Part shown: in pieces, positions 32,257-56,210 of the stretch
Position numbering within the stretch: the stretch's first letter is position 1
How the letters are laid out: every line of letters begins with the position of its first letter
From: Candidatus Parcubacteria bacterium
Lineage (GTDB): Bacteria > Patescibacteriota > Minisyncoccia > Phycocordibacterales > UBA918
Reading direction: 5' to 3'
Length of the DNA stretch: 64,000 nt
Assembly: GCA_046050355.1 (NCBI GenBank)
Contig: JBJOPW010000001.1
Span: 67,858 to 131,857, forward strand
Notes under the pieces: generated by a model
What the model saw: only the letters and a program-made list of their open reading frames with translations
What the model was told of the DNA's origin: nothing
The model's database searches: none
Position numbers and translations under genes: made by a program

Positions 32257-33732
32257 TTAATTAGTTATATTCTTAACCCAACCAAAAGTAGACTCAAAGT
32301 TCTCAAGAATCAAATCAATAATATTCTTCTCTTGAATCGGTGTAAAGAGCACGAAGTTTTCAGACTGTATGGTATTTTCAGCTTCATCAGTACAGTTAAG
32401 CCAGAATTGGTAGACAGTCGCCGGCGCAAAATCAGTAATAACCTCAACGTGGTTGGTATTATATTCAAGTACTTCTTTTTCGAGCACAATCGGTTCAACT
32501 CCACCCGCCACTCCTTCACGATAGGTCATAATACATGAAGCCGGTTCATCAGTATTCCATTCAACGATTGTCTGTACCCGTGATTCTCCCCCCGGGAAAA
32601 TAGTAGATTCATTGGTCACATTTGAGATCAGCGGAGCCGAATTATCGCGTACCGTAATAAATTGAATCGGTTGACTACGAACGCGGTCTCCGCCAGAGTT
32701 TTCGGCAATCACAAACGCGACATAGCGAGTACCCAGAGTAAGATCAGAGAGACGCATCTGGTGTGTAGTGGCTAAAGTTGGTCGCCCTACAGAATTCTGG
32801 GTACCAAGGGTGAGATCTTGGTATTCAATGAGCGCTTTCGCCGGCACGGTTGTATCCCACGCTAGGGTGGCAGCATTTTCTTCTACCTTGACGATGCGTA
32901 AGTTACGAATGTCGGGTAACGAGGCTTTGGTTTTAAACGTGTACGTTCTACTTTCACCAGTAATTTGGTACGAATCGGTGGAACGAACTTGAAAACTGTA
33001 CTCAGTAAATGGCTCAAGACCAATGAGCTTAATCTCGTGGTCAGTGACCGCACCAGCGGTTGACGATTGTGAGAAATCAAAATTGGTACCATCAAAGCCG
33101 TTAGTTCGGGCAAAACGAACTTCTGAATTGGCTTCACGATCAGTCACCCAGGACACAGTTGCTGAAGTAGTTTCTGGTACTACCGTTGGTGGACCAACAA
33201 TGGTCAAATCTTCAGTAATACCCTGAATCGCTTTGACAGTTTCGTTAAGAATTTCCTGGAGCTGTTGTGGGCTTTGGATTTGCTGAATTTGTTCAACAAT
33301 CTCTTGCGGTGTATTAGTTTGTCCGGGTCCAACCCCACTACCTGAGCCACTGTCTGAAGATTTCTCGCTATCGACATCTATTTTGTAGTCAGCGGAGATA
33401 CCTTGGTTACCATCAGCATCAGCGGAAATCACTCGAAAATAGTACGTACGACCAGGGTCGAGGTTTTCGAGGGTCACCGAATGACTGGTACGATTTGCTA
33501 CTGGCACACGGACAACTCCCAGATCTGGATTGAGACTGTAATTTACTGCCGAATCCGCGCTTTCATTCGTCTTCCAAGTAATCGTTACCGTTGTTTCGGT
33601 GGATGAAGCAACTTTTACTTCGGTGATTTCTGGTGCTTTTGTATCACTGGTTTGCGCTATAAGCGGGTTACTCGGTAACGCAAAAACACCGAGGAAGAGG
33701 AGGAGTAGCGGAAATAAACGCAACATAATCAT
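32257..33732 (-). CDS. Secreted protein with tandem fibronectin type III-like domains
   Basis: Signal peptide. Repeated FN3-like units (TETTVTITWKTNESADSAVNYSL...DPGRTYYFRVISADADGNQG; SATVSWVTDREANSEVRFART; ENAATLAWDTTVPAKALIEYQ; TIVEWNTDEPASCIMTYRE). Confidence 0.7.
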   Translation of the reverse strand: MIMLRLFPLLLLFLGVFALPSNPLIAQTSDTKAPEITEVKVASSTETTVTITWKTNESADSAVNYSLNPDLGVVRVPVANRTSHSVTLENLDPGRTYYFRVISADADGNQGISADYKIDVDSEKSSDSGSGSGVGPGQTNTPQEIVEQIQQIQSPQQLQEILNETVKAIQGITEDLTIVGPPTVVPETTSATVSWVTDREANSEVRFARTNGFDGTNFDFSQSSTAGAVTDHEIKLIGLEPFTEYSFQVRSTDSYQITGESRTYTFKTKASLPDIRNLRIVKVEENAATLAWDTTVPAKALIEYQDLTLGTQNSVGRPTLATTHQMRLSDLTLGTRYVAFVIAENSGGDRVRSQPIQFITVRDNSAPLISNVTNESTIFPGGESRVQTIVEWNTDEPASCIMTYREGVAGGVEPIVLEKEVLEYNTNHVEVITDFAPATVYQFWLNCTDEAENTIQSENFVLFTPIQEKNIIDLILENFESTFGWVKNITN

Positions 33733-33750: not shown

Positions 33751-36700
33751 TTATGGTGAGACTGGCGTAAAGACGTTGATACCAGAGTGAGGCGCACTGT
33801 TCACCCCAAACGGTACCTCAATTCCCCAGAAGATGTCCGTGGTTACTGGTGGCGTTGGTACGGTCGGTTTACTGAGATTAACATCAAGTGCTACTGGAGT
33901 TGAACTTGAGAGGAGTGAGCAGACGGCACAGCCACTGTAGGTGAACGTACTCGTAGCAAATTTTTGTTTATTGGCTGGAATCACTGATGAGGCGCCATCA
34001 CTGAGATCAGTTCCCTCTACTTCGATATCAAATGGTACGTTACCAGCATTTGCAATAGTCGTTGTTGCATTATAAGAACCGGTATCAGCTTGAGGGGCCA
34101 AAGAACCGTAGTTAATACCAGAATTTATACTCAGTGATCTTACCGTAAGTAGTTCAACGGCCAAGCTATCAGCAAAATCATATCCGCCACTATTATCAAT
34201 CACTTCAGTGAAGGCGAACCACTCAGCTGCGCCATCATCTGAAGGAGTTGCAAAGAATTGTATATCAGCATAACAAATTAAGTTACAGTTGTTGCCTGTG
34301 CACTGCAGATTACATTGATTACTGGTATCAACACGGTAACAATTGTTGTCATCAGGTGTACATGATGAGGTACCGGACGCGGTTTTGTAGAAGGTAGTCG
34401 TAGCCATTTTAATATCACTCGCACCGTTAAAGTCGGTAATGGTTGTCGTGGCGTAAATGCGGGTGGTTGTTCCTGGTAGCAATGCAATGTCAAACCCGTC
34501 ATTGAGGTTGACTGTGCCAATCACCGGATCAAATTGGAGACCAAGTTCAGCCACTTTAGCGTAGTAGTCGATTGGAGTTGAACCGTTTACCACGCGGAAA
34601 CAGTAGTTATCAGAAGCATTGTTAGTCGGAGTAATCACATACTCAAGTTCGGTGTAACGATCTTGATTAACTGATAAACCACTAGTCATAGTAGACGGAC
34701 TTTCAACAACCGCACCAGCACTAAACTGACCATTACTGGTAGTAAGCAAGTCGGTAGTCGCTTCACCGTCGGTAACGTTGCTGGATACCTGCATACAAAC
34801 GGGTGACGATCCGCACGATGCCTGATTTGGTACGGCTGCAAAGCTACCACTACTGACCGCTTCACAACTCGGAGCACCACCCTTGGCGGCATACTGGAGC
34901 CGGTAGGTCTGTCCTGTCACATCGAGACCAGAATTCTCTATGCCGATACGTAGACGACGAGTGACATTTGGCAAGCCACTACCTAAAGTATTCTCCGCAG
35001 CGACCCACGATGCACCACCGGCAGTTTGTTTGGCACCAAAGGAAATACCGGGATTAATCGGACCTCGTCCGCTCACCTGGTAGCTATCCCAGGCGCCATT
35101 TTGTACCCAGAAGGTAAAGCCCATACCACCACTGGTATACGAACTATCGGTAGCGGTAGTCGACGCTACAATCGAGCCAGCAGCATTATAGAGGTACACA
35201 TCAATACGATTGCTGGTTTGCCAATCAATTTCGACCAGATACCAACCAGTAGCAAAGGTGACCGTGGTAGACGCCAAGCGGGTACCGGAAACATCGTTAT
35301 CAGTTACATTCTTCGACAGTGAGAGGCGGTCTGTTCCAAACAGTTCAAGACACACTGCGTAGTTATTATTATTGGTGCCGGGAGTTTGTACACCAAATAG
35401 TGCACAACCTTCATCGGCTGATCCCGTTGTAGTATCGACGTATTGGCGATATCGAATAACTTGACCCTGCGCTGTTAGACTGCCGGTACGGAAGATACCA
35501 TCAGTGGTTCGACCTGACTTATTTAAGGCTTCAAGCGCATAGCTACCACCAAAGACTGGCGCGGTATCGGTCTGGAATAATGTCGTATCGCCACTGTACT
35601 CAGTAATATTGTTATCTTCAAAGTCGTCACTAAAGCTGAAAGTGGCAGCCGCTGAACTTGAACTGGTTGAACTTGCATTTCCAAAGTACGCAAAGACATC
35701 AGTATATGCATTTGCCGCTAGACTCGGCACCTCTACCCACACCACGGCTTCAGTACTCGCCGTGTAACGATCAAGCCAGAAATCAAGTGGCGTCACCCCG
35801 TCAATACGGGTAAAGCGAAGATCATCAAAGTCAGATTGCATCGCACTATCGTACGGTACGACAATCTTAACCGTGGTGGTCGAGAAAGTGGTAGCGGTAA
35901 TGTTTTCGATGCGGACTCGCTGCCGATTACTCCATGACAAGTTATACCACTCACTATTTGGCGCTCCTTCTCCCCCATCATCAGCACGCCAACGGTAGCT
36001 GGTCTGTGAAGTCAAAAGACAACCACTATCGTCAAAGCGTATTGAACCACATGCGTCAACACCGTCACTGTCAAACGCTTCTCCACCGATGTTGCCGTAG
36101 CTACCACTAAAGCGCCACGCATTACTGGTACTACCGACCAGTGCTGTATTGGTACCATTCCAACTATTTCCAGCATTAAAGCCAACGGCGGTAAATATCT
36201 TTGACGCATTGGCATTAAGCGCTGTGTCAGCCAATGTGATGAGGGTACCACCGTTAAGCGCTAGATTGTAGTAACCGTTACTCAAATTGGTGATAGTAGG
36301 CGTATTGATGAAATTAAGACCGGTGCTATTGAGGGCGTTAAAGCGATAGTACTGGGCATTAAAGGTACCACCAGTGACAATAAACGCGTGGGTGCCGGTA
36401 CTGATGTTACCAATGGTAGTCGAGGCACTTAGTCCACCAATGATACTAAGAGTACCGCTCTGGACAGTGGTAGTTGCATTTTCATTGATCCGAACGGTTA
36501 CTGCTCGCTCAGTGCCAGTAAGTGCAGTACCATCAAAATCGGTAGCGTACGACCAGTATTCACTCGTGGTGGCAACGGTGAAGTCTCCATAAATATTGAG
36601 GGCTCCGTCAACTACGCCATGGTCTTGTGAGTAGAGTGAGGCCCCCGCACCGGTAGTGGTGGTAGCCACCGAACTATTCCACAGGCGTAGATCAGCGACA

Positions 36701-39700: not shown

Positions 39701-42700
39701 TCGTACACATGAGCAGCACTAATGGTGAGGCGGCCGCTGACTGTCGTAGTAGCGGCACTAGCTGGTGTAGTAGTACCAGCTACTGACCCATTACCCAAGA
39801 CTAGGTTTGCAAAGGTCCATGGCGTGGTACCACCAAGGGTATTAGTGCGGGAAATGGTTGTCGTACCTGAGCCAAGGGACAATGTGCCGTTCCCGGTAAG
39901 TTGTCCGTTAAGGAGTGAGATATTATTGGTGCCCGTGACGGTACCAGCGCTGATGGTCATATCTCCAGTGAGACTGAGTGGTGCGCCAATATTCCATGCC
40001 CCACCCACTCCGGTAAAGGAAAGGTTATGGAAGTTTTGGGTGGTGGCCGCAGTAATACTCTTACCAGTAGTGGTGGCGGTAAAGACAAAGGTCGAAGATG
40101 CCGCGGTAATAGTGGCATTCTGACCAACTACCAGTCGACCAGCCAAGCTATGCGTATCAGTACCAGCGGCGATGAATTGTGACGAGGTCGCCAGTGTAAG
40201 ACTTCCCTCAAAGGCGCTACTTGAGGCATTACCGGCGAGCGTGACTGGTCCGCCTGGAGTAAAGGTCGTGCTCGCCCAGACAAAGAGGCCATTATTCGAG
40301 AGGACAGTGAGTGACGTCGACGGTGTCGTGGTGGCACTAAAACGCATATCGGTATCTGAAGCAGTATCAAAGAGCGTCAGGTCAGCAATTGAGAGCGGCA
40401 CTGCCCCTTCATGACGAGTAATGAGTTGGTAGGCATACACATCAAGATTCGTGATGTCACTGGTTGGAGTTTTGGTGACTGCCGCACCCGAAACACCTCC
40501 GTTAGTATTGAGGTACACGGTAATCTTTGGGTCGCCAATAAACGCAACATTACTAAAGCTGTAGGCACCAGTAGTGACATTACACGAGGTTTGCGCAGTG
40601 TAACTACCACTATTAACGACGACCCGCACGTTTGGCGTTACTCCATCACACACCGGTGCACCAAGCGAGGCTCCGCCATCACTCGTGAGCACTCGTCCAG
40701 ACACCGTAATGAGATACGAACTATCATCAAAGCGAATGGCGCCAGGATTTGCATCCCCGCTATCAAAGGCCTCGCCGTACAGGTTGCCGCTTCCCTCCTT
40801 GAACCAAACAAAACTAGTTGAAGTGCCGGTAAAGGTAACGTTTGCTCCGGTACCAGCAGTCGTGGTCGCAAAGGCGACGCGGAGTAGTTGTTTGGCTGGA
40901 TTGGTACTTACGGTCGTACCATCAATCCGCAGACCCGAGGTTCCTGGAGTAACATCAATATAACCATCGTCAAATTGTGACAGCGTCGTTGAACTTAAGA
41001 GACCAAAGCCGGCTGATCCGGTACTCGCCACACTAAAGTAGCGAGCCGTCACAATACTGTTCGTGGCATTAAGCGAGAACGAACCGGTGAGTGCCGCAAT
41101 GGTTGTCGATGCCGAACTAGTACCCGTAAAGTTGAGTGAGGCCGCCGTGAAGCCAACACTCGAACCGCTCGCCACCCGCACATCTACCTGGCGTGGACTA
41201 CCGAGTACCGTACCGTCAAAGTCAGTGGCGTAGGCCCAATGTTCGGTGCCGGTACTACGGATGTAATTACCGTAAATGTTGAGATCGCCATCAACTGCGG
41301 CATGATCTTGTGAGTAGATTGAGCCAGTATCACTCGTGATGTAGGTGGTGGCTGATGAATTCCACATTGCAATATCTGCATCATTGGCTACTTGGAGCGT
41401 ACCGTAAACGTCACCACCAAAGGACTTAGTATGCATACTGTGATCGGTACCGATGAAACGAAGGAGTGAGCCCGTCCAGGTGGTCGACGTACCAGACATA
41501 GTTTGTGAGAACGTACCTGATGCGGTCAGTGACAAACCGCTCTGTAATGTAAATTGAGTGGCATTAGTCAAATTGATGGCAACCGTAGCAGTAGCGCTTT
41601 CGGTGACAGTAAAGTCGCCACCAGCACCATTAAATTCGAGGGTGGCAAAGGTTGATGATCCAACCGCTATCGTTTCACTGCCGGCGGTTGAATTAAAGCG
41701 GACAGTACCGTTGTTAGCACTAAACGCACCATTGTTATCAAATGATCCGCCCACACTGAGGATGCCACTCGGGAAAGTTGCACTCGCTCCAGCGTCGGCA
41801 ATGTAGTTACCAAGAATTGTTGTGTTGGTATCAGTAAAGACACGAGCGAACCTGGCTTCTGCAGTACTGGTACTATAGAACGAAGTTGACGTACTCTGGT
41901 TATTGAACTCAGTACCAAGCCAACCTGCATCACGTACCACCGAAGCTAGACGGAACTCGTCGATACGTCCATCATGATATTGACTCGCGCCGAGACTACC
42001 AAGTGAGAAGCCGGTTAAGGTCACGTTTGGATCACTCGCGGTACTACTCGTGATAAAGGCACCGTCAAAGTAGATACTCATATTGCCACCACCAGCGCCA
42101 GGAGACACCAACCCGATATGAGTCCATTTGTTTCGGTACGAAGCATATGAACTCGACACGCGACCGGGTACACCAGCAGCACCAAAGTCCCAGTAGAGTA
42201 TGGCATCACTCCACGGTCCATGGGTTGCCACCCGCTGCCCACCACTTTCAGTAAAGCCAAAGAGATTGGCAGCTTTTGTTTCGGCCGTTGTCACATTGTT
42301 CCAAGCAGTAACGGTGATCGTATTTGACGCATTCACCCAGGCAAACGCTGCATTGGTAAGATAATCATTGACGCCATCAAAATCGATCGCATTCCCAAGC
42401 ACACCGGCCACGACGTCAGTAGCATCCATCGCACCTACCTGACTCAAACGCCTATCAAACCGCGTACTATCAACAGTGATACCCGCTGGGTCAGAGTCCA
42501 AGTGGTACACCGCCTGGTAGCCGTTGGTCCAAACATTTTGAGCACCAAAGGCAGACGTCGAGGCGTAAGCGGTAGCACCACTATTACCGTAGTATACGTA
42601 GAAGTCGGCACTGGTTGAGGTCGCGAGACTTGGCGCTCTGAAGTACACCTCACCTCGCTTCGTACTGGTACTGACAGACACCACTTCAAGTGGTACTTCG

Positions 42701-48700: not shown

Positions 48701-51700
48701 TCGCGGGTAATAGTTGGTGAAGAAAAATCAGCATCATTATCAATGACAACCTCATACGAGACAAGATCACCAAGCTCATCAATCGCGGCAAATTCAAAAG
48801 TTGGTGTCGTCGAAGCGAGTTGCCGATTATCAAACGGTGCGGTCAACGTCGGTTGTAGCGGTGCCGCATTAGTGATCAATCGTGGGTAGGTACTGTAGGT
48901 GTTGAGAATGGCTCCATCTGCATACACAAGACGGAAACAGTAACTTGTATTGGCTGTGGCTCCATTGTTTTGTAACGTAAAATCCCATTCTGTTTTTTGA
49001 CCAACCAAGAGCCCATTCCGATTGAGAATGGTTGGATTATTTTCTTCGTATGTCTCACTAAAATTACTATCAGAAAGTAACGTGCTTGGCAGGACTCGAC
49101 CGTCACCAATCAACTCTTCTGCTTGTACAGTATAAAATCCCGTTGCATTTGTCTGGTTGTTATATTCGGTCTTTAACCAGCTCGCTGAGCGCGCTACTGA
49201 GGCAATTCTAAACTCGTCGATCCGGCCTCGGTGATACGTACCACCAGCCGTTGATACAGAACCAAGCGCAAAACCGGTCAACGCTACGTTTGGATTATCT
49301 GACGTGGCCGCCGTTGCGATGGGCGCACCGTCTAAGTAAATACCCATGAAAGTGCCGCCAGTACCGTGTGATACGAGCCCAACGTGTGTCCACTTATTAC
49401 GATAACTCGTGTAGTTTGTTGTGAGTCGTCCCGGGGCACTACAACAGGTACCAAAGTCCCAGTATAGTACCGCATCTCCCCATGGTGCATGGGCAGCAAA
49501 CCGCTCTGCTCCAGCAGCAGTAAAGCTGAAGAGGTTTGAGTTCTGTGTTTCAGCAGTACTCACATTATTCCAGGCGGTGACGGTCACGGTCGCTGTGTTC
49601 CAGCTCCAACCAGTATTGGTTAAATAGTCGTTAACGCCATCAAAATTCAAACCATTGCCAATTTTTGAACTAGTACTGTTCGTGGCCACCATGCCTGACG
49701 ACGTTAGATTGCGTCCATTACTGGTACTATCAATCATGGCACTGGTCGGATTGGTGCCTAAGTGATACACCGCTTGGTAGCCATTATTCCAGACGTTATT
49801 TCGACCATATGTTGCTGTGGCCGCATACCCACTTGCGCCACTATTGCCATAGTAGATATAAAATCCAGTGTCGGTGGTGGTTGAGAGACTTGGTGCTTTA
49901 AAGTGAAGTTCACCAGTGTCAGCACTAGTATCAATTGCTACAAGCTCATACGGCACTTCGGTGATACCGTCACTCGTGGTAATACGAATATCGTCACCAT
50001 CACTCTGCACAGTATCAAAGAAGACGGCTGGCAAATCATCGAGATTTACATACACAGGAAAGTCAGTCACTGCTGATGATGTACCAACGAGCGCATTATC
50101 AACTTCAATCTTAATTCGACGTCCCCAAGCCGCTCCATACCAATCGCTACCAACAATCGAGTTGGCATAGCCACGCCAGAGAGCTGTTGTACTACCGACC
50201 GCACCGACATCAGACCACCCGGTAGCGATACTACAAGAAGAACCAGGAGCATACTGAAGTTTAAAAGCAGAAGTACTGGTTGCCAGTGGTACATTTGCAC
50301 CCTGAAGTGATAGCCGTAGTCGCAGGACATCATTAAGACTCACCGCTTCAGCTGAAGACAAAGCGACATTTTCGTTGACGTCAGTACCGCCGACTGGCCA
50401 GGCATCAGTTGGTGTGAAAAAGCTACCATTCGCATACCAGCGAAAGTTACTTTGCACTAATTTTGGTTTACGTAGCCAGGCGACTGACCAATCATCAAGA
50501 CTCGCACTTTGTGAGCCGAATGTAGTTAACGTAGCTTCAAGACAAATCTGACTATAAGTCGAAGTCGAAAGACTGGTGAGGTTGAGAGGCATCGCACTCT
50601 GATCAAATCCCGTACTATTACCCGGAAGTGCTCCATCAGGGATATAGGTATCACAGGTAGTGGTATTAGTATATTTGAGTTTCACCGTCACATCAGTACC
50701 AAAAGGTTCCGTTGAACCAAACGACAAATCACCCCAGGTATTTTGATTGGGGACAGACGTAAAGACGATTGGCTGGGTCGTCACGATACCCTGTGTGAAG
50801 GTGTAGCGTTTGGCGGCCATCTCGAATGTTTCGTAAGGGGCGCCAATAATTGAGGAGGGATTCGGAACTATAGATTGTTTGGTAGACCAATTGGTTCCAT
50901 TCCAATATGTCGACTCAATTTCATCACCCGCCACCGCATCATCATGACTAATTGCGACAATGGTGCCATCCCCAGCACGTTCTGTTTGTACCCAAAATAC
51001 ACCAGCCCCAGAGCCGACACCAGACACTGTTTGTTGGGCATCCCAGGTTGATGTCGCAAAGGTACGGTAGCGTAGGTTTGTGGTATCAGAGTATGTACCG
51101 AGAATATAACCTGACCGACCGGCAGTAGTTTCGTATTCACAATCAACCGGTCGACCAGCTTGTGAGTTACCGGTAATAGTAAAGTCGGTAAAAGTACCAG
51201 TCCAGACACTACCATCCCAGCGTATGGCACCAACCCGCGCTGAGTCATTGATGAAACAAAGCGTCATGAGATCAGAGTTAGGATCGGCAGCCAGTGAACC
51301 AAATTCAAAATCGTTGAAGAGTGCCTGCGTACCATTACTACTCCAACCCAAACTAGGACCGAGCCAGGTCACATAGGCAAAGTTGTTGTTAGTACCATTA
51401 GTCACGGCTATCACCGCTTGGTCGCCAGAAGACTCATACTTCACGCCAATACCGGCTCGCAGTTCTTGACCAGCCTGTACTGAACCAAGGACCCGACTAC
51501 TTATCCAACCAGTACCATCCCACACCAGCGCTTCGTAGTTGTTCCCTACCGCCGCGCCACTATCGCGCACGACGAGAATCATTTCATCTGAAGTTGGATC
51601 AGACGCAATTTCGACATGGTTACAGACATTGACGAGGCTAGTGGTGATACTACTGGTGGCTGACCACGTACTCCCATTCCAGGTGCGGTATACCGGATCT

Positions 51701-54700
51701 TTAGTGTTACTACAAGACACCACCATCGCGTCACCGGAGACACTTTCATAGCCCACGGCAATACCCTTGCGCGTGACATTCGAAACAGTGCTCGTAATCA
51801 GTGTCTGATTACCCCACGAACTGCTCGTGGCATTGTACACCTGCGCATACGTCGCATTAGATTGGTCCATCGTCACGAGAATGTATTCATCCCGCTTTAC
51901 TCCAGCAGCTGTACGGACCCAGTTAATAGTACCGCCGACCGCAATCGCCGACTGCTCAATCCCCCAGCTCGTACCATTCCAGAGGCGATACCGTGGGGTG
52001 GTGTTGGTACCATCACCATAAGCCAACATAATCTCAGAACTCACCGTTGAGTTTACAGTGACATTATTATTCACATCATTGGCCGTCGCGCCAAAGAGCG
52101 TATTCGTTTGGAATTGTCCACTGGTAGTTTGGTACCAGTTTGCAACGGTATCTCCTGCATTAACAGTAAAGCTTTGTGTTGTTGAATAATCACCAAAGCC
52201 ACCTGAACCAGTAACGTCTTTCGCGCGGACCCGCCAATAGTATGTCGTTAGGTCTGTGAGTGTGTCACCTGGTTGTAACTGATAGCGGATTTTATTGCCT
52301 TCGGTAAATGGCGCAGTGTCACCACCACTCACGGTGTTTACAAATCCTGCATCGGCACTAGAAACTCGCACGGTAGCAGTCGCAAAGGTTGAGGAGGTAG
52401 AAATTGAGAACTCGTATTCAATATCAGAAGCTCCGTCCGGGTCACTCGCGGTAAATTCAAAATACGGTGACGTTGAAGCAAACCGGGCATTATCAAATGG
52501 AGTTTGTAATGTTGGTGCTGCCGGGCGGAAATCAAGCGCAGCTTTTTTCCATAGCATGAGGGTAGCTGGAGTAGTAGAGCTTACCTGACCAGCCGTTGCT
52601 TCTTGCTGACTTTGCACTGACACGATCTGTCCCGCGCCAACCCCCTCAAGCAAGAAGACGAGATTGCCTGACGCATCAGTGTGTCCGTTTTGGTTACGAA
52701 TGTAGTTTGATTTGGTTTGGGCACCCGTTGTCGTCGCCCCATTAACTGTTACGGTAATACGATTGTTCGTACGAGCAGTAGCACCAGTCACGGCCACGTT
52801 GTACATGAGGAAATAGTCACCACTTTGACCAACCGTAATCTGATGACTGTTAGTGGTTGATGAATAGGTATAGGTACCGGTATCGTGTGCCAATGGTACA
52901 TTGAAGCGTGTTGAGGAAGCGTTTGTGTTATTGAAGTTCATTCCCGTCGTACCGTTGAAGTAGTTACCAGTGACGGCAATCACACCCGCAGTTGGTAACT
53001 TTTCAATCACAATCGAACCAGCAAAGCCTGGTGTCACAACGACGTTCCCGCCACCGGCTTCTTGTTGTGCTGTTACGGTGAGCACACTATTTGTACTACT
53101 GGCAACCACCACCCCGGACCAATGAATACTCGAGTCGCCATCACTTTCGGTAGCTGCCGTTTCCATGTACCCCTGCATAAATTGCGCACCTGGCACGGCC
53201 ATACCATTGATAAGTACTCGTCCAGTGACGTTTGTCTGCACTGTATGGTTTACTCCCGTAAGTGGAATATTGACATGGACCATGTAGGTACCAGTAGCGG
53301 ACAACGTAATATTTTGTGGCGATACAGTGTTTGAGTGTACAAAGCCGGTGTCTTGTCGAGTCTCAATCCAATCCAATGCGTTGGCCGTGGCAGTGTTGAG
53401 ACTGGTGGTTGCCGTCGATCGAGTGGTTGTGGCCGCAAAGACAATATCGCTACTTGTCATGTACTCAACATACAGTGACGCCAACCCAGATACATTAACG
53501 GTGTCGCCGGCATCAATAGTATTTAAGTTTTCGACAAACACTTCAATGTAGTCATTCGCATTGACATCAGTAAGGAGAAACGCGACGTTTGATGATGACT
53601 CTGATTGTGCACCGGCATTTTCGATATAGCCACTACGCCCAAGACCTTCTTGTACCGCCACGCCGTTTTTACGTACCTCAATACCCGAACGAGTGCGACT
53701 CGTGTTGGCATCGGTTCGTTGTACTGGCAAGTTTACTGCGACAAAGTAATCACCACTTTGACGGAGGGTTACTCGCTGTGAGTTTGATGAAGTTGAGTGA
53801 GTATAGTAGTAGTTATCAATTGAACTCGTCGACCACTGCATCGGACTAGGTACACTGTTGAGGTTCGTTCCAGCAACGGTCCGCGTACCCTTAAACCACC
53901 CGATGTTGTTAAGCGCATCAGACGCAATCTGCCACTGCCTCAGCTCTGAGAAGCTGTCCATAGTGAGTGGCCCAAGGAGATACATATAAGGACTAACATC
54001 AGGCGCATCAAAGGTATACGAGAAGGTACGTTCGTCGCCGACATTCATTGTCACGTTTGACCAGGTTATAAGACTATACTGTGGTAGTGCCGTAATCGTC
54101 GCCCCCTCGAGACCCTCGATGATAAAGCCACGTGGTACTCGCTCGGTGATATCACCGGTGTAGGTACGGTTGGCTTTGACCTTAAGCTCTACCTTATATG
54201 GTGCGGGTGGGTAGATACGGGTAGGTGCCGTACGAGTGATATCAAATGGGATATAGTCACGCACTTCAAAGGAGTCAGTAATCTTGTGTACGACTTCCCC
54301 GCTTACGTTTAGATGTTGTAGCTGAATAGTGTACTTACCCCATTCGCCCGTATCTTTAAAGGTAGCCAGGTAGTCTGGCACATCAGTAACGTTGTTCGCG
54401 TTACACGAACCAGATTGCGACACTGGCACTTCGAAGATTGCTCCCTTTGGATCGATAATCTTCATCTCTAAGTTCGCATCACAAATCGTGTCGCCACTAT
54501 CAGTCAAGGCAGCGAGATTGAGCACTACTTCCTCGTTCGGGAAGTACATGCTCTTCTTGGTGTTTACAGCCAAAAGCCCCCAGTAGAATTCAAAAGTGTC
54601 GGTGAACTTTTCACCATTTTCAAGTACCTCAACGGTCACTTCGTACTTTCCTGGTGCGAGCGTATACGGCAGTTCTTCAACTTGCATTGACCAGGTGAGG

Positions 54701-56121
54701 TCATCGTAGTATTTGATATCAAACAGGGCTGGAATCTCAGTCCCGTCGGGATTCTTGATACTCACCCGATCCACGGCAAAGGTATTCTCAGCAAAGATAG
54801 AACGGAAGATGCGATTGAAGAAACCTTGCTGTGGATCGTACGACAAGGTAAACATCGGTGACTTACCAAGAACTTGGTCCAAGTCAGCATTCACAAGTTC
54901 ATTGAGACTTGGTGCCTTCAGATCTCGTTCGTAGCCAATGGCATCGGTTGGCTTTTCAAAGTCTGATGATTCGTAAAAGCGTCCTGAGGTCACATCAAGC
55001 CATACACCATCAACAAAGACAGCTTCGGTCTCAGCTTCAATGCCTTCGTAGGCGACTTTGACCCGAAGGTTTGAGAGGTCATTACTGTATGGCGAAACAG
55101 CGAGGGCCACGAGGAAGTGGTCACCATTAAGGCTATTTGAAATCTCACCACCAACGTCAATCACGGTACCAGGGAGATACGTCGCACCCGCATCAAGTGA
55201 GTATGACACGACGAAACGCTGGATAGCACTACCAGGTTTCGCTTTGGCCGCTAGTGAGAGTCGTAGTTGTACCGTATCTAGTACCGTGCCGTTGGTGAAC
55301 TCAGGCAACGCAAAATTATCAAAGGTCAGCGACCGAGTTTTACAGCCAGCTTCGACGAGACAAGGTTCCAGGCCAAAGAGGTCAGTGGTGGTAGTACCAA
55401 CTGCAGCAGGTGATTCAGGAGTACTCGTCGTAGCCCCATCGCTAATAGTCTCAGAGGCGTCACTTGGTGAGTCACTTGCTTCCGTTGGCGTTGCTGTCGT
55501 TACCTCAGGTATCTCTGGAGTAGATGCTTCGTTTGGCGCAGAAGCTGGTTCTATGTCAGGCGCAGTTGTATCTGGTGCTACTTCCTCAACCACCGGCACC
55601 GCATCGGTGACCGGAGTCGTTTCATCAAATTGTGCGAGTGGATAGGCTACCGCCCGCATGGATGTCTCAAGCGGCGTATCACTCGGCACTGGTTCGGTTG
55701 GTGGTGTTGATTCAGTTGATGGCTCGGTAGCTGGAGTTTCAGCTGGTGGAGTATCAGTAGTAGCACCGTCTGAAGCAGCTCCATCATCTGGCGTACCGGT
55801 TGGCGGATTTTCAGTTGGCACAGCAGGAGATGGCGTTTGTGATTGTGTTGGTTCTACGTACTTGAAGTGTGCAGAATTGGCATTGGTGAAGTTTTGTAAG
55901 ATACCATCACCATCAACATCTTGAATCAAAACCTCATTCGGATTATCAAAGCCATCTGCCACTACACCTCCTGGTACAACCAGCAATTCTTCGGTCGTAT
56001 AGACCGTTCGGTCAATGTACGAGTACGCCAAAAAGCCACTGATACAGACAAATACCAGCAGAACCCGCAGAGTAAGGCGGTTTAGCTTAGGAATTACATG
56101 CGACACAACTCTAACGCCCAA
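33751..56121 (-). CDS. Giant (7456 aa, 22.4 kb) cell-surface protein: N-terminal TM anchor, Pro/Thr-rich stalk, three DUF2341-like plus LamG/concanavalin-like pairs, long right-handed beta-helix-type repeat arrays, FN3-like triplet, W.G..W propeller-like segments, Gly-rich stretches
   Basis: Single uninterrupted ORF on the minus strand. TTG at 56121 is the first in-frame start (GTG at codon 6 is an alternative). DUF2341-like units: WGRRIKIEVDN...DIRITTSDGITEVPYE...FYIYYGNSG, WSARKKITIQG...DIRITASDGVTEVPLE...FYVYYGNSG and WSNRQRVRIEN...DLRFTRIDGVTPLDFW...FAYFGNAS. Two of these are followed by LamG-like DGVNDYLTN...WNNV(S/T)TAET...GRIDEFR(I/L)ASV. Internal ~900-aa tandem duplications are visible at the protein level. 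Confidence 0.8.
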   Translation of the reverse strand: MGVRVVSHVIPKLNRLTLRVLLVFVCISGFLAYSYIDRTVYTTEELLVVPGGVVADGFDNPNEVLIQDVDGDGILQNFTNANSAHFKYVEPTQSQTPSPAVPTENPPTGTPDDGAASDGATTDTPPAETPATEPSTESTPPTEPVPSDTPLETSMRAVAYPLAQFDETTPVTDAVPVVEEVAPDTTAPDIEPASAPNEASTPEIPEVTTATPTEASDSPSDASETISDGATTSTPESPAAVGTTTTDLFGLEPCLVEAGCKTRSLTFDNFALPEFTNGTVLDTVQLRLSLAAKAKPGSAIQRFVVSYSLDAGATYLPGTVIDVGGEISNSLNGDHFLVALAVSPYSNDLSNLRVKVAYEGIEAETEAVFVDGVWLDVTSGRFYESSDFEKPTDAIGYERDLKAPSLNELVNADLDQVLGKSPMFTLSYDPQQGFFNRIFRSIFAENTFAVDRVSIKNPDGTEIPALFDIKYYDDLTWSMQVEELPYTLAPGKYEVTVEVLENGEKFTDTFEFYWGLLAVNTKKSMYFPNEEVVLNLAALTDSGDTICDANLEMKIIDPKGAIFEVPVSQSGSCNANNVTDVPDYLATFKDTGEWGKYTIQLQHLNVSGEVVHKITDSFEVRDYIPFDITRTAPTRIYPPAPYKVELKVKANRTYTGDITERVPRGFIIEGLEGATITALPQYSLITWSNVTMNVGDERTFSYTFDAPDVSPYMYLLGPLTMDSFSELRQWQIASDALNNIGWFKGTRTVAGTNLNSVPSPMQWSTSSIDNYYYTHSTSSNSQRVTLRQSGDYFVAVNLPVQRTDANTSRTRSGIEVRKNGVAVQEGLGRSGYIENAGAQSESSSNVAFLLTDVNANDYIEVFVENLNTIDAGDTVNVSGLASLYVEYMTSSDIVFAATTTRSTATTSLNTATANALDWIETRQDTGFVHSNTVSPQNITLSATGTYMVHVNIPLTGVNHTVQTNVTGRVLINGMAVPGAQFMQGYMETAATESDGDSSIHWSGVVVASSTNSVLTVTAQQEAGGGNVVVTPGFAGSIVIEKLPTAGVIAVTGNYFNGTTGMNFNNTNASSTRFNVPLAHDTGTYTYSSTTNSHQITVGQSGDYFLMYNVAVTGATARTNNRITVTVNGATTTGAQTKSNYIRNQNGHTDASGNLVFLLEGVGAGQIVSVQSQQEATAGQVSSTTPATLMLWKKAALDFRPAAPTLQTPFDNARFASTSPYFEFTASDPDGASDIEYEFSISTSSTFATATVRVSSADAGFVNTVSGGDTAPFTEGNKIRYQLQPGDTLTDLTTYYWRVRAKDVTGSGGFGDYSTTQSFTVNAGDTVANWYQTTSGQFQTNTLFGATANDVNNNVTVNSTVSSEIMLAYGDGTNTTPRYRLWNGTSWGIEQSAIAVGGTINWVRTAAGVKRDEYILVTMDQSNATYAQVYNATSSSWGNQTLITSTVSNVTRKGIAVGYESVSGDAMVVSCSNTKDPVYRTWNGSTWSATSSITTSLVNVCNHVEIASDPTSDEMILVVRDSGAAVGNNYEALVWDGTGWISSRVLGSVQAGQELRAGIGVKYESSGDQAVIAVTNGTNNNFAYVTWLGPSLGWSSNGTQALFNDFEFGSLAADPNSDLMTLCFINDSARVGAIRWDGSVWTGTFTDFTITGNSQAGRPVDCEYETTAGRSGYILGTYSDTTNLRYRTFATSTWDAQQTVSGVGSGAGVFWVQTERAGDGTIVAISHDDAVAGDEIESTYWNGTNWSTKQSIVPNPSSIIGAPYETFEMAAKRYTFTQGIVTTQPIVFTSVPNQNTWGDLSFGSTEPFGTDVTVKLKYTNTTTCDTYIPDGALPGNSTGFDQSAMPLNLTSLSTSTYSQICLEATLTTFGSQSASLDDWSVAWLRKPKLVQSNFRWYANGSFFTPTDAWPVGGTDVNENVALSSAEAVSLNDVLRLRLSLQGANVPLATSTSAFKLQYAPGSSCSIATGWSDVGAVGSTTALWRGYANSIVGSDWYGAAWGRRIKIEVDNALVGTSSAVTDFPVYVNLDDLPAVFFDTVQSDGDDIRITTSDGITEVPYELVAIDTSADTGELHFKAPSLSTTTDTGFYIYYGNSGASGYAATATYGRNNVWNNGYQAVYHLGTNPTSAMIDSTSNGRNLTSSGMVATNSTSSKIGNGLNFDGVNDYLTNTGWSWNTATVTVTAWNNVSTAETQNSNLFSFTAAGAERFAAHAPWGDAVLYWDFGTCCSAPGRLTTNYTSYRNKWTHVGLVSHGTGGTFMGIYLDGAPIATAATSDNPNVALTGFALGSVSTAGGTYHRGRIDEFRIASVARSASWLKTEYNNQTNATGFYTVQAEELIGDGRVLPSTLLSDSNFSETYEENNPTILNRNGLLVGQKTEWDFTLQNNGATANTSYCFRLVYADGAILNTYSTYPRLITNAAPLQPTLTAPFDNRQLASTTPTFEFAAIDELGDLVSYEVVIDNDADFSSPTITRESNADFSQFTNIASPSERSQYSSGQTIQFVPNTGLTNGVTYWWRVRAKDDFGSNTYGSWSEPRSFTVNSATTLTTWFQTTGDQFNTNSLNDALANVSTNDVGINTSFTAATTTTTEIDYDNRAIGNAWGSISFNQNVTSGTIRHYVEYEVSSNNFALVPDTDLPGNSAGFASSPISIAALDTTTYNVLRITSVFSGNATLPRLLDMTVTWSLKIEPPTHLTLFDNAKTATVTPAFTFTTIDPQADDLQYEIQISTTQDFAAPTTFMSGVDAGFSNVTTPADTSPFNSGNTIRYQTQAPLTNSVTYWWRTRARDPGGSNSWSNYSTPFSFTVDTATNVSVWYQTTGEQFSTNDTVDIETTLGGAQVSSVINGVMVAYAEGTAQAPQYRTWNGSAWSAPISADTVSAQIRWTRLKAATTRPEYALGTLGTDLDINIQIYDAITESWGNIFEIVNSATESTKRRYDIAYETVSGKLMAVACLGNDAVYATWDGSSWSATSSLVLANTNDCEWVQMASDPVSNEIIAVFRHTNTGTPDYEALVWNGSSWGNSNRFGDVSANTNEGMVIEYEESGDQAVLALPNGTVNMPWKTWNGSTWSATNTVALGNVMTWGSLKRDEGTDRMMLCYMDADTDIGIVPWTGSAFGTFTELTITGNDNRGLPADCDFQTTQGTDGDVVIAYSDTVAARYQTYSFGTGTTSGEFSLDVINNSWRFQTVRGGDGTVHALAFDDGSNPDRYDTSRWNGSVWTARENFSSSPSIAAQPFDGSLTIAAQIYPNFTSASIRSTAINFADGASPRWERVRFTDTTPGLSNVLYRVYYETTPGTFALVPDSALSGNAAGFTNSPINISGLDKNIYNVLKLDAELLCDSGNCPSVQDWSVEWSEGLTISGSIFDYDQLTALASGTVAVAVNGVLQSGKTAQVAAGTSTQQVVYTAAGTSTFTVPSGVTSVTVKSWGAGGGSGASYSTNGGGAGAGGGGGFVQGNVTTIPAENLTVRVGGGGAGGTAATSTGGGGGGGYSGVFRTSTPLLVAGGGGGGGGGVTNIKYVGAGTACGVNGAACTPTIPASTAVNDLYIAVLHSRTDTAHTCTTNCTGWTEFSTQAGSAGEGRVSVWYYRRTGAAPANPTFAGPATESYTGRIWAFRGAAITGNPYDVLGTNTAVTVANTVFTGSNLSSTVPDAMVVHVGGSMDNNTWGPGGGSCNTPNAADANFYAANANGTDNSVFLCYRDNPISSAGSLGAPTMTQATLGADVGRYFTFALRPQATDGLVLGNGGAGGGLTGETGSTTAASGGGGGGTQVAGGAIGGSNATVGAAYQGGLGAGTAGGVGAGGAGGIGGGGTGGSGSTTAILAGGGGGGAGYYGGGGGANASDFYTHNPGAGGGGGSSYTALTGVSATSTISGSGTQAANTADPDYSAGVGVGAAAVTSITNGSSGGNGKVVVTWSTVASAGTWSIPNVSAVAGDVITVFIQNASGTDEAVAVTVYDGSGDITGMQLSKRHLTIGSNDGTTVTNANLALYANAANEDIFYSASGGSTISLCAESTCSDARLRVLSGATYAPGADTSVINFQNNGTFAPATSTFRISNVWDNQSTFTVGQSTIIFTATTSTQTPQNASSSLAFYNVTFGESSGNATFTLTKPLITYGNLTVNYGTLARGTTTLNIGGNLSLGANGTFSGLGTTTFDGTGSSLWGDAKAANLSTNIGNVVIDGTAKTITLSGNVGSESLTIGNDDTLNASGSGFNINVLRHWTNNNAFVPQSGTVSFIGTSTGVIARGTSAFNNLSFTGVGGNWSFSTSTLALNGTLTIATGTVTLPTGTTTIGGSFLNTGGQFAHNNGEVRMTSSVAGRSITTSGTPFLNNFYDLVFTGAGGWTFTGAATTTRDMRITAGTVTMPTTTLAVGGDFVTTGSGAFAHNNGEVILLVQDADTLSTNGSSFNNLRVRGAASGWYNDSWSARKKITIQGSKVMGSMTNFPVYLNLADLGDDFFTGITTGGADIRITASDGVTEVPLEVVSVSTSTKRGEVYFRAPSLATSTSADFYVYYGNSGATAYASTSAFGAQNVWTNGYQAVYHLDSDPAGITVDSTRFDRRLSQVGAMDATDVVAGVLGNAIDFDGVNDYLTNAAFAWVNASNTITVTAWNNVTTAETKAANLFGFTESGGQRVATHGPWSDAILYWDFGAAGVPGRVSSSYASYRNKWTHIGLVSPGAGGGNMSIYFDGAFITSSTASDPNVTLTGFSLGSLGASQYHDGRIDEFRLASVVRDAGWLGTEFNNQSTSTSFYSTSTAEARFARVFTDTNTTILGNYIADAGASATFPSGILSVGGSFDNNGAFSANNGTVRFNSTAGSETIAVGSSTFATLEFNGAGGDFTVTESATATVAINLTNATQFTLQSGLSLTASGTFSQTMSGTSTTWTGSLLRFIGTDHSMHTKSFGGDVYGTLQVANDADIAMWNSSATTYITSDTGSIYSQDHAAVDGDLNIYGNYIRSTGTEHWAYATDFDGTVLGSPRQVDVRVASGSSVGFTAASLNFTGTSSASTTIAALTGSFSLNATNSIVTARYFSVASTGSAGFGLLSSTTLSQFDDGYIDVTPGTSGLRIDGTTVSTNPAKQLLRVAFATTTAGTGANVTFTGTSTSFVWFKEGSGNLYGEAFDSGDANPGAIRFDDSSYLITVSGRVLTSDGGASLGAPVCDGVTPNVRVVVNSGSYTAQTSCNVTTGAYSFSNVAFIGDPKITVYLNTNGGVSGAAVTKTPTSDITNLDVYAYQLITRHEGAVPLSIADLTLFDTASDTDMRFSATTTPSTSLTVLSNNGLFVWASTTFTPGGPVTLAGNASSSAFEGSLTLATSSQFIAAGTDTHSLAGRLVVGQNATITAASSTFVFTATTTGKSITAATTQNFHNLSFTGVGGAWNIGAPLSLTGDMTISAGTVTGTNNISLLNGQLTGNGTLSLGSGTTTISRTNTLGGTTPWTFANLVLGNGSVAGTTTPASAATTTVSGRLTISAAHVYDVGSSPINLTGSGTVFSVSGTYRPGTGLVTYSGANATVLGTTYYDLAVGASVGSSTFTTSGVGILVNRNLTIGNGTASSTFTTNQSDPVLTVSGDVFVASASTLSLSDTATTTIAGSIDNNGTVLANGGIAAFTGSGTHTIAMGTSPLARTRINGTGSFTVSESATSTVSFTLQNHALFRVATGTTLALAGTFDNQLGGAATDFPGTLYFYGGSSIAVNQKTTADTYSTLGVASDTRIRLWNSSATTYNALGGIYSQDHNNTNGLLHVYGTFAETSASDYWSYATDFDGTALSGSERVVTVAFASGAAYNLTGGSLSVIGAAGASTSITNQGAGTYGVIIGGSGTANWNYATVRNASTSGIIFTGTPIVTDFSRVDIEVGATGGTGVTIGSTVLNNNPAKNLTNNHFATSTGVSAATNVTATGTAVSSWRFTNHTGSIDGEVYDNDPAGDPGYIVWDDSAALITVSGNVYSDEGVTVSPVCNGVTANIVLRVAGLTTYSTPCNATTGAYSIPNVAFSPADTLTVYIDNNIRKAVTVSADPISSISDMHLYENRVIVRHENTSPLSIADMAVWDSSDDGDILFTAVDAGSDTLSLPADQKLLIWTSKTFEPNGNVTLSGGGGGGAQDGTLEALANATWRAQGNETHSIAGSIIFGAGAVFTAGQSTTTLTTTGAGRTIDVNSGAFYNLYITGSGSWTVADSALTTTRSYTQSAGTVTFGSGTTTIGASFNATGGSFSMPGTGIAFVSSSTGNIVRFDDAMVPALYFTGAGGAWSMTDTNATTTGSFIISNTGTVTLPSGALAVGGSFTNASGTVTHNTADLYMTSASAASITTRGSDLFALRKTDVGTINITDASATFRDDVVIASGSLVAATNTLSVGGSFLVTGGTFSHASGTVLFNATASGKTINASTSPFYNVQFASASGGWTWQGNATTTNNLTLTTASAFTKEAGTSLSIGGVFTNLVGGGATTWTNTIISLTNSAPYTINTKTTGGDDYATLSINVADLRLWNSSVATTTTGAGASLYSQDHGVVDGALNIYGDFTVATTSEYWSYATDFDGTALTGTERAVTVRINENATTTVQSGTLSIIGGLSASTTIGNISTGTHAFIVTGGTFNAQYYRFNALNSTGLNFINTPTITNLSNGYYNLALNGGTLITLADTALNANASKIFTAVGFNAGNSWNGTNTALVGSTSNAWRFSGSYGNIGGEAFDSDGVDACGSIRFDDSGCLLTSQTSYRWRADDGGEGAPNSEWYNLSWSNRQRVRIENITATTFSTTTVKIVVPYDSAMQSDFDDLRFTRIDGVTPLDFWLDRYTASTEAVVWVEVPSLAANAYTDVFAYFGNASSTSSSSAAATFSFSDDFEDNNITEYSGDTTLFQTDTAPVFGGSYALEALNKSGRTTDGIFRTGSLTAQGQVIRYRQYVDTTTGSADEGCALFGVQTPGTNNNNYAVCLELFGTDRLSLSKNVTDNDVSGTRLASTTVTFATGWYLVEIDWQTSNRIDVYLYNAAGSIVASTTATDSSYTSGGMGFTFWVQNGAWDSYQVSGRGPINPGISFGAKQTAGGASWVAAENTLGSGLPNVTRRLRIGIENSGLDVTGQTYRLQYAAKGGAPSCEAVSSGSFAAVPNQASCGSSPVCMQVSSNVTDGEATTDLLTTSNGQFSAGAVVESPSTMTSGLSVNQDRYTELEYVITPTNNASDNYCFRVVNGSTPIDYYAKVAELGLQFDPVIGTVNLNDGFDIALLPGTTTRIYATTTITDFNGASDIKMATTTFYKTASGTSSCTPDDNNCYRVDTSNQCNLQCTGNNCNLICYADIQFFATPSDDGAAEWFAFTEVIDNSGGYDFADSLAVELLTVRSLSINSGINYGSLAPQADTGSYNATTTIANAGNVPFDIEVEGTDLSDGASSVIPANKQKFATSTFTYSGCAVCSLLSSSTPVALDVNLSKPTVPTPPVTTDIFWGIEVPFGVNSAPHSGINVFTPVSP

Positions 56122-56136: not shown

Positions 56137-56146
56137 TTACCTATAG

Positions 56147-56181: not shown

Positions 56182-56210
56182 CGAATTTTATTGTGGATTG
56201 TTTGTGCTCA

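Follow-up and report, generated by a model that had tools for sequence, protein, structure and literature searches.

The 64,000-nucleotide stretch analysed here (called the window in the following; positions 67,858 to 131,857 of contig JBJOPW010000001.1 in assembly GCA_046050355.1 of a Candidatus Parcubacteria bacterium) carries on its minus strand one giant gene of 22.4 kb, which is real and conserved under purifying selection. The domains recognised in its product, the giant protein, all belong to extracellular types (beta-sandwich or lectin), and we propose, with a probability of roughly 0.6, that the gene encodes a multivalent glycan-binding cell-surface adhesin fibre of Patescibacteria (Paceibacteria/Minisyncoccia).

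A continuous giant gene under purifying selection

The giant gene (33751..56121, minus strand) starts with TTG and runs over 7456 codons plus stop with no internal stop codon; for random codons, the calculated chance of such a stop-free run is about (61/64)^7456, i.e. roughly e^-358. Judged from the sequence, translation may truly begin at a GTG five codons further downstream, which is the start called for the orthologue in the relative L002. The single uninterrupted open reading frame (ORF) of 7456 amino acids (aa) that had originally been predicted was confirmed here, and it is continuous in five independent assemblies of metagenome-assembled genomes (MAGs).

A scan for orthologues, in which each species was represented by one genome, found eight loci. 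Uninterrupted orthologues are present in five MAGs from different projects (L003, 7517 aa; L006, 7694 aa; L008, 7805 aa; L004, >7075 aa and reaching the end of the locus; L009, >6921 aa), and the MAG records are labelled as Patescibacteria, as Candidatus Paceibacteria (= Minisyncoccia) and, in two cases, as Saccharibacteria. The five orthologues are colinear end to end, and apart from the variable stalk and the LamG cores (both described below) most 100-aa bins share 40-96% identity. In the comparison with the closest orthologue, L004, synonymous differences are saturated (pS ~0.70) and non-synonymous differences are low (pN ~0.04-0.14 in most 200-codon bins), which argues for purifying selection along the whole 22 kb. 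Colinearity among the orthologues includes the C-terminal 450 aa, with 44-70% identity. Regarding coding capacity, the giant gene would amount to 3.3% of the closest relative's 676-kb contig.

In two syntenic relatives from JGI metagenomes, L001 and L002, the orthologue was called as two ORFs (1813 + 5191 aa and 1632 + 5310 aa, respectively). Both frame breaks fall into the first propeller, at different sites (L001 15288-15442, L002 14824-14899, equivalent to aa ~1750 and ~1585 of the protein in the window); one is an indel beside an AAA/CCC run (GAAACCC), the other a deletion of ~14 codons. Because the positions differ, the breaks do not mark a shared gene boundary, and from the sequences they appear to be either assembly errors or independent lesions or inactivations. 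Programmed frameshifting was also considered for the split orthologues and rejected, since the shifts occur at different sites and no recognisable slippery sequence was seen on inspection. Gene catalogues will list such split giants as two unrelated 'hypothetical proteins', and for annotation it follows that what some assemblies show as split 'genes' are frameshifted copies of a single giant one.

The two split orthologues would also speak for taking the giant gene as an assembly chimera or a decaying pseudogene. We regard this explanation as effectively refuted, because the frameshifts lie at different positions, the ORF is unbroken and colinear in the five other assemblies, its entire length is under purifying selection, and there are no long repeats able to cause a collapse. 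At the nucleotide level, no repeat within the gene is longer than 135 nt (73% identity), and Tandem Repeats Finder reported no tandem repeats over gene and window. Hence, the internal duplications of the protein are old and unable to cause assembly collapse.

Lectin-type modules, their variation and the predicted surface anchor

Pfam scans were made with two whole halves of the giant protein and then with domain-sized pieces singly. On the halves, only DUF2341 (77.3 bits for the whole piece) and a summed Ig_Rha78A_N match (39.4 bits) appeared. DUF2341 (PF10102) has a gathering score of 23.4 bits, and three copies lie above it, at aa ~2041-2098 (26.8 bits), ~4462-4523 (32.1 bits) and 6764-6839 (57.9 bits; E 1.4e-15). 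LamG (Laminin_G_3, PF13385, cutoff 27.6 bits) was detected at aa 2161-2315 with 48.9 bits and E 1e-12, only if this segment was scanned alone, and the second LamG copy (aa 4521-4742), which is 57% identical to the first one over 226 aa (E 1e-87), found no Pfam match at E<=1. Hence, whole-protein Pfam scans of giants under-report domains. The original prediction had described three DUF2341-like units, two of them directly followed by LamG, and this arrangement was confirmed by Pfam together with the identity of LamG 2 to LamG 1; the check by hidden Markov model (HMM) search that it had called for recovered DUF2341 three times and LamG as well. After the third copy of DUF2341, another LamG could not be demonstrated, as neither Pfam nor PDB gave a match and hhalign against the profile of the pair returned a probability of 1.7%.

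In the AlphaFold model of the DUF2341+LamG pair (AF2; predicted local distance difference test score, pLDDT, 91; predicted template modelling score, pTM, 0.91), the two domains pack into one rigid unit. Searched against PDB with Foldseek, its LamG half matches the lectin domain of trans-sialidase, the HCN part of botulinum/tetanus toxin and the accessory domain of AbnA (E ~1e-9, ~230 residues), and in a profile search of PDB sequences the same half matches the 'S-layer domain-containing protein' 4qvs (E 6.6e-15). The single-sequence search of the segment against PDB sequences found no match, and for the DUF2341 half no solved structure in PDB was matched by fold or profile searches. DUF2341 thereby gains a structural context as the rigid partner of a LamG lectin-type domain, which could guide a first functional study.

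Homologue searches were run with segments of 1151 and 361 aa and with one alignment. The search with aa 1985-2345 yielded 187 proteins, many of them only ~350-375 aa long, with ~95% query coverage and 35-48% identity; the consensus of these stand-alone pair proteins begins directly at DUF2341, and a signal peptide is absent. When 1.84 billion cluster representatives were searched exhaustively by HMM, 267,908 matched at E<=1e-3, 124,910 at <=1e-10 and 32,695 at <=1e-30. The top proteins of this search, with chains of 2,000-7,900 aa, have up to 14-21 matching stretches, the best of which span the full pair. The 32,695 representatives at the last threshold make the DUF2341-LamG pairing highly recurrent, and the earlier description of a recurring, uncharacterised architecture holds also in its second part, since no solved structure covers the DUF2341 half.

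The pair is used in viral tail-gene neighbourhoods as it is in the giant protein. The gene of the stand-alone pair protein P0048 is flanked by a phage structural gene (Phage_phiTE_241_C) on one side and by a phage lysozyme gene on the other, IMG/VR contains at least 154 stretches encoding the pair, and on the viral contig L016 it is flanked by genes matching tail-fibre and tape-measure-like PHROGs. With BFVD as fold library for viral matches, two proteins were found to match the whole pair (TMq 0.78 and 0.67). The full pair was not found in the cultured phage genomes of INPHARED; there, P0048 matched only cyanophage 'virion structural protein' genes, via the LamG half. A groundwater virome study described ConA/LamG proteins in candidate phyla radiation (CPR) phages, including phages of Paceibacteria, and cited them as CPR attachment factors (PMC11310336).

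Furthermore, the LamG cores of the giant protein (aa ~2101-2300 and ~4521-4742) diverge between lineages in a cassette-like manner, as seen in a six-way alignment of the orthologues. Identity to L004 amounts to 25-37% in the cores and to ~85-90% in the flanks; with L008, which carries two further core types, the cores share 17-31%. L006 and L009, more distant overall (55-65%), keep 64-87% in the LamG cores. The edges of the module are kept in all types (YG.NVW.N.Y..V.HL at the start, GRIDE.R.S...R..W...E.NNQ at the end), and the L004-type cores are nearer to the stand-alone protein P0045 (45-47%) than to the cores of the window (28-30%). From these alignments, the incongruence between core and flank would be best explained by replacement of LamG cores inside a conserved frame. 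A more speculative extension, to which we give only minor weight, is that DUF2341+LamG represents a portable receptor-binding cassette circulating between phage tail genes and giant Patescibacteria adhesins, in which replacement of the LamG core within the conserved DUF2341/edge framework would re-target the symbiont or phage to a new host glycan. If this were true, the LamG cassettes of the giant gene would be host-range determinants of the lineage.

Two other blocks of ~400 aa model as lectin-type beta-propellers, at the level of the fold, for which sugar binding is putative. The first one was modelled with AF2 from aa 1320-1795 and an alignment with 15 homologous segments, which resulted in an all-beta propeller (pLDDT 79, pTM 0.81). 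Its best fold matches in PDB are the seven-bladed fucose lectins PLL3, PHL, PLL5, PLL2 and PLL4 (E 1e-11 to 1e-9, TMt 0.65-0.69), followed by CV39L/BP39L, the fungal AOL/AFL/FleA/AofleA and RSL; the top 13 are all PLL, PHL, AOL or CV39L lectins (TMt 0.52-0.69). The second propeller is 38-42% identical to the first. Propeller 1 has six and propeller 2 five copies of the blade motif W(N/D)G(S/T)xW, which we take to resemble the WDGxGW motif of RSL/AAL-type lectins. Because there is no sequence-level match to PLL or AAL, the likeness to lectins is a fold-level resemblance and not a membership.

Regarding the localisation of the giant protein, aa 17-37, preceded by basic (K/R-rich) residues, form its sole hydropathy peak (Kyte-Doolittle >1.6, 19-aa window), and this hydrophobic N-terminal segment is kept in L002 and L004. 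The subsequent stalk (aa 90-250) consists of T 20%, P 18%, A 13%, E 11% and S 10% and is the part least conserved between orthologues. Taken as a whole, the protein is acidic (622 D+E versus 324 K+R) and has a high content of T, G, S, A and N. Hydropathy and composition hence bear out the N-terminal transmembrane anchor and Pro/Thr-rich stalk of the original prediction, and both features, together with the all-beta adhesion-type domains, support its reading as a surface protein. An LPxT[GAS] sortase motif was found nowhere in the giant protein, whose only hydrophobic segment is the N-terminal one. NCBIfam has no family for either half, and PHROGs gave nothing on the segments scanned except for a weak phrog_11583 match in the glycine-rich domain. 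A dockerin-like 'DVDGDG' near aa 69 was dropped as a candidate, being not conserved in L003 and without Pfam match.

Repetitive shaft, further domains and genomic neighbourhood

Internal duplications were mapped by chunked self-BLAST of the protein. A block of ~580 aa comprising FN3, propeller and the following domain is duplicated (aa 1203-1787 versus 2702-3260, ~40% identity), as is the DUF2341+LamG unit (aa 1992-2323 versus 4414-4742, 51-57% identity). The block of ~580 aa had no place in the original prediction, and neither had the two propellers, the cassette-like variation of LamG and the stand-alone viral homologues. Moreover, a large unit is present ~2.5 times in tandem, its copies beginning at aa ~4803, ~5593 and ~6366, with a period of ~780-790 aa and ~40% identity (self-alignments 4803-5356 versus 5593-6150, 4805-5156 versus 6366-6721 and 5555-5937 versus 6320-6704). 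Tandem duplications of ~900 aa had been predicted; large diverged duplications are indeed present, with the period given above and colinear stretches of ~555 aa instead of ~900, and the pair of sequences quoted as example falls into this unit, its copies lying 798 aa apart. A segment inserted in the large unit (...ITVSG.V..) may be prealbumin-like, as read by eye. The F.NL.FTG.GG.W motif occurs in aa 3920-4410 (array 1) and 4760-6720, with strict copies at aa 4248, 4329 and 5364 and looser copies besides. Among orthologues, array 1 shows 69-73% identity and 83% mean column identity; only nine homologues of it were found, none with a beta-helix Pfam annotation. Hydrophobic autocorrelation over the arrays gave no informative signal. 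Composition and periodic motifs make it plausible that the repeat arrays form a beta-solenoid or right-handed beta-helix.

The positions of all features are compiled in Table 1. The probable beta-sandwich domains at aa 250-740 are well conserved among orthologues. The subsequent C1q/TNF-like repeats stay below the BclA_C cutoff of 38 bits (33.5 bits, E 4.4e-8, two stretches), which is suggestive only. Of the FN3/Ig-like units, each reaches ~20-21 bits with Ig_Rha78A_N (cutoff 27.4 bits), and the match attains 39.4 bits when summed over the protein. These units had been described as three consecutive repeats ending in YWWR.RA.D; the motifs are present, dispersed at aa 1294, 2514 and 2778, i.e. 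the consecutive arrangement was wrong. The ~100-aa repeat unit at aa 1790-1885 has no Pfam match. In the glycine-rich domain, aa 3404-3675 reach 21.7 bits with Gly_rich_2 (cutoff 24.3) and E 3.7e-5 with phrog_11583.

Window positions 44001-46000 have the highest GC content (0.54) and the strongest negative GC skew (-0.18) of the window. This peak coincides with the glycine-rich domain (minus-strand GGN codons) and is hence a compositional effect of the protein, not a foreign insert. A homologue of the glycine-rich region with 54% identity is encoded on a 5.2-kb contig (L010, JACRDB010000042.1) from a 0.1-um groundwater filter that is labelled Deltaproteobacteria; probably, this contig comes from Patescibacteria and was mis-binned into a Deltaproteobacteria MAG.

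The giant gene lies within a ~50-kb island of secreted proteins on the minus strand (window ~7500-33700 and 56200-60700), which holds, besides the genes in Table 1, Big_13/Big_6/Big_7/FN3 proteins and hints that this Patescibacteria genome encodes a cohesin-dockerin surface assembly. The 2053-aa protein shares aa 1852-1986, 7050-7198 and 2348-2417 of the giant protein, and a 625-aa protein (26723-28600, minus strand) shares its C-terminal aa 7202-7452; this common domain of ~250 aa may be an assembly or anchoring module of the island. L001 and L002 share the gene order of ABC transporter, dockerin protein, HSP20, cohesin protein and giant gene, and in L004 an open frame of 520 aa precedes the giant gene. 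An ORF for an IS200-like Y1 transposase (1214-1849, plus strand; PF01797, E 7.6e-7) adjoins a tRNA-guanine transglycosylase gene and is among the few plus-strand genes of the window. The tRNA scan of the 64 kb returned 0 tRNAs, and the Rfam scan of gene and window gave no match.

Between the stop of the upstream cohesin gene (56211) and the start of the giant gene (56121), a hairpin with a 17-bp stem was seen at 56146-56182 on the minus strand (TATAACGCGC...GCGCGTTATA), with a predicted fold energy of about -32 to -50 kcal/mol in regions of ~85-150 nt containing it. It is also present in L001, L002, L003, L004 and L008; across the six genomes the outer stem keeps its sequence, and the variable inner stem and loop show compensating changes. 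Downstream follows TATACTATA(A/G), which is -10-box-like, with no T-run and no Rfam match. The hairpin might either terminate transcription of the cohesin gene or take part in regulating the giant gene.

Table 1. Features of the giant protein and its neighbourhood (window coordinates; aa numbers refer to the giant protein)
Feature	Position	Strand	Evidence
Giant gene, whole	33751..56121	-	ORF call; uninterrupted colinear orthologues L003, L004, L006, L008, L009; low non-synonymous change throughout
N-terminal hydrophobic segment, read as signal-anchor/transmembrane helix, aa 17-37	56011..56073	-	Kyte-Doolittle; conserved in L002, L004
Thr/Pro/Ala/Glu/Ser-rich low-complexity stalk, aa 90-250	55372..55854	-	Composition
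Probable Ig/MG2-like beta-sandwich domains, weak evidence, aa 250-740	53902..55374	-	Sub-threshold Pfam only, e.g. MG2 E 0.031
About three ~154-aa repeats, BclA_C (C1q/TNF-like) sub-threshold, aa 745-1200	52522..53889	-	Pfam; self-repeat 773-1027 vs 927-1180
FN3/Ig-like unit 1, ending YYWRVRAKD, aa 1203-1320	52162..52515	-	Pfam, self-similarity, motif
Beta-propeller 1, lectin-like, aa ~1360-1760	50842..52044	-	AF2 model, PDB fold matches, blade motifs
~100-aa repeat unit copy 1, aa 1790-1885	50467..50754	-	Self-similarity 1801-1972 vs 3273-3420
DUF2341+LamG pair 1, aa 1992-2335	49117..50148	-	PF10102 26.8 bits, PF13385 48.9 bits, AF2 model
FN3/Ig-like unit 2, aa 2424-2545	48487..48852	-	Pfam, self-similarity, motif
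~110-aa repeat unit copy 2, aa 2576-2684	48070..48396	-	Self-similarity 2576-2684 vs 3244-3353
FN3/Ig-like unit 3, aa 2690-2805	47707..48054	-	Ig_Rha78A_N best stretch aa 2701-2802
Beta-propeller 2, paralogue of 1, aa ~2850-3240	46402..47574	-	Identity to propeller 1; five blade motifs
~110-aa repeat unit copy 3, aa 3244-3353	46063..46392	-	Self-similarity
Glycine-rich domain with inserted Gly-poor segment, aa 3404-3915	44377..45912	-	Gly_rich_2, phrog_11583
T/G/S/N-rich repeat array 1, ~81-aa F.NL.FTG.GG.W units, aa 3920-4410	42892..44364	-	Self-repeats
DUF2341+LamG pair 2, aa 4414-4755	41857..42882	-	PF10102 32.1 bits; 51-57% identical to pair 1
~2.5 tandem copies of ~780-790-aa unit, aa 4760-6720	35962..41844	-	Colinear self-alignments
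DUF2341 copy 3, aa ~6725-6840	35602..35949	-	PF10102 57.9 bits
C-terminal region, aa 6840-7456	33754..35604	-	Last ~250 aa common with 625-aa neighbour
Cohesin proteins	56211-57755; 19478-21226	-	Pfam
Dockerin proteins	58657-60627; 18038-18793; 24571-25677	-	Pfam
FN3/purple-acid-phosphatase-N protein, downstream of giant gene	32257-33732	-	Pfam
MacB/FtsX-type ABC pair	29232-31900	-	Pfam
2053-aa protein, no Pfam match	10174-16335	-	Similarity to giant protein

Proposed function and relation to known systems

According to our proposal, the giant protein would be exported by the Sec pathway and tethered via its single N-terminal hydrophobic segment, the Thr/Pro-rich stalk would span the cell envelope, and ~7,000 residues of all-beta domains would reach outward. 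Along this shaft, modules of carbohydrate-recognition type (two PLL-like propellers, two DUF2341+LamG units, a third DUF2341, the C1q-like repeats and the glycine-rich domain) would be spaced apart by the long T/G/S-rich arrays, which are probably beta-solenoids. Multivalent binding of low affinity and high avidity to the glycans of another cell could then attach an episymbiont to its host, with the LamG cores as exchangeable determinants of specificity.

Several observations weigh against this adhesin proposal. Generally, it is built on sequence and models and concerns an uncultured organism with a putative host. DUF2341 has neither a known function nor a solved structure. The propellers found no match in Pfam apart from a spurious one to DUF2510, and nothing significant in the profile search of PDB sequences; since propellers resemble each other, a ranking led by lectins at ~13% identity is suggestive only. 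The F.NL.FTG.GG.W arrays of the original prediction are present, but their assignment to beta-helices has no match to go with it, neither to Pfam beta-helix families in aa 3920-4420 or 4750-6720 nor to PDB sequences with the profile of array 1. The divergence of LamG cores could partly reflect fast local evolution and not replacement alone, given that synonymous differences are saturated even against the closest orthologue. Finally, if the frameshifts in L001 and L002 were real, an intact giant would be dispensable in some populations.

The same modules might serve within the cell's own envelope, i.e. the giant protein could be a structural coat protein (S-layer-like or fibrous matrix) whose lectin-type domains bind own wall polymers or sister proteins. 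It fits to this explanation that among PDB sequences the LamG half matches the S-layer protein 4qvs best, that many secreted cohesin/dockerin neighbours of structural type would be able to build a self-assembling surface complex, and that the gene order is conserved and neighbours share domains with the giant protein. We nevertheless consider it unlikely, as Pfam found no SLH or other wall-binding domain in the giant protein, a variable target outside the cell would account better than a conserved self-polymer for the cassette-like exchange of LamG cores among close lineages, and the pair also occurs in viral tail-gene neighbourhoods. The two cohesin and three dockerin proteins encoded nearby, together with LamG and propeller lectin-type folds that are typical of carbohydrate-binding modules, could also indicate a cellulosome-like complex that captures environmental polysaccharides or particles for nutrients instead of mediating cell-cell attachment. 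However, cohesin and dockerin modules are present in the neighbouring genes only, with none detected by Pfam inside the giant protein, and neither a glycoside hydrolase, a lyase nor another catalytic domain was found in the giant protein or its neighbours, which makes a capture complex quite doubtful.

Far less probable is a tip adhesin of type IV pili, of the MshQ/PilY1 kind. One homologue of the pair was named 'MSHA biogenesis protein MshQ' by JGI, Makarova et al. placed archaeal DUF2341 proteins at the tip by analogy (PMC4858521), an annotation repeated in PMC11809585, and type IV pili are widespread in Patescibacteria (PMC8080830). However, no pilus, secretion-system or phage genes, and specifically no pilin, PilB/PilC/PilM or prepilin peptidase, were found among the 38 scanned ORFs, which cover most of the 64 kb. 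Inspection of the N-terminus, an ordinary signal-anchor, showed no prepilin motif of the G/(FM)xxxE type, and a protein of 7.4 thousand aa far exceeds known tip adhesins in size. Large size and a repetitive shaft, as well as the FhaB-type domains of some giant Patescibacteria proteins (PMC11809585), might finally bring to mind contact-dependent toxin delivery (CdiA/FhaB/Rhs-like), with the shaft presenting a C-terminal effector. This is hardly credible here, since Pfam and NCBIfam found no TPS, FhaB/FHA, Rhs/YD or toxin domains in the giant protein, its conserved C-terminal 450 aa are colinear and not polymorphic, and the downstream gene encodes an FN3 protein and not a small immunity-like protein.

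The adhesin proposal matters for a field in which host recognition and attachment by ultra-small Patescibacteria are largely unknown beyond a few cultured Saccharibacteria, and the giant gene offers a concrete conserved candidate. Its two lectin-like propellers and two DUF2341-LamG units are defined, expressible modules for binding tests, and the LamG cores differing between close lineages represent a natural experiment.

Concerning known systems, the propellers have the fold and the Trp-containing blade motif in common with the PLL/PHL lectins of Photorhabdus, BP39L/CV39L, AOL/AFL/FleA and RSL (PDB 8q81, 6t96, 5mxe); unlike these free soluble lectins they are embedded in a giant protein, with ~13% identity. 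DUF2341 is shared with the COG5306/'MshQ' and the archaeal arCOG03508 proteins (PMC4858521), and homologues have the whole pair in common, with 35-48% identity over ~95% of the unit. Those proteins are, however, small to medium-sized and encoded in pilus loci, whereas the giant gene has neither pilus genes nearby nor a prepilin signal. The ConA/LamG proteins of uncultured phages, including CPR phages (PMC11310336), are comparable in that the pair is found as a stand-alone gene in the tail or lysis part of viral contigs; these viral proteins differ from the giant protein by a single unit without signal peptide, and the full pair is missing from the cultured phages searched.

Giant extracellular proteins occur in other symbionts with small genomes as well. 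The SPEARE proteins of DPANN, according to the part of PMC9563170 that cites them, are multi-domain interaction proteins, and Giant1-5 were described in Apilactobacillus kunkeei (PMC12863079). As far as these sources portray them, both are 3,000-8,000 aa long, take up several percent of a small genome and have a proposed role in cell-cell interaction, which makes them functional analogues only; in the giant protein, we saw no enzymatic domain. The predatory CPR bacterium Vampirococcus lugosii possesses giant membrane proteins that were proposed as host-attachment factors (PMC8080830), and the similarities comprise the membrane anchor, a tiny genome and the proposed roles in host recognition and fixation and in giving a fibrous surface. 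Its giants differ in size (1392-4163 aa), domains (WD40, PKD, DUF11, integrin) and class (Absconditabacteria), and we liken them without claiming homology.

In the literature searched, we did not find a conserved orthologous family of ~7,000 to 7,800 aa under purifying selection, lectin-type propellers or a rigid DUF2341-LamG model, nor the very large spread and viral occurrence of the pair or the cassette-like variation of LamG. The closest counterparts come from the study of Patescibacterium danicum, in which 149 proteins of more than 4000 aa were reported for Patescibacteria, 82 of them with FhaB and/or DUF2341 (PMC11809585). In that study, the proteins had no full-length homologues, and LamG pairing, propellers and cassette variation were left unresolved. 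Unlike those giants, the protein described here has no detected FhaB domain; it shares with them the phylum, the size class, DUF2341 and the proposed role in adhesion and host interaction. Hence, because giant DUF2341 proteins of Patescibacteria have already been published, the giant gene represents an instance of an already known kind.

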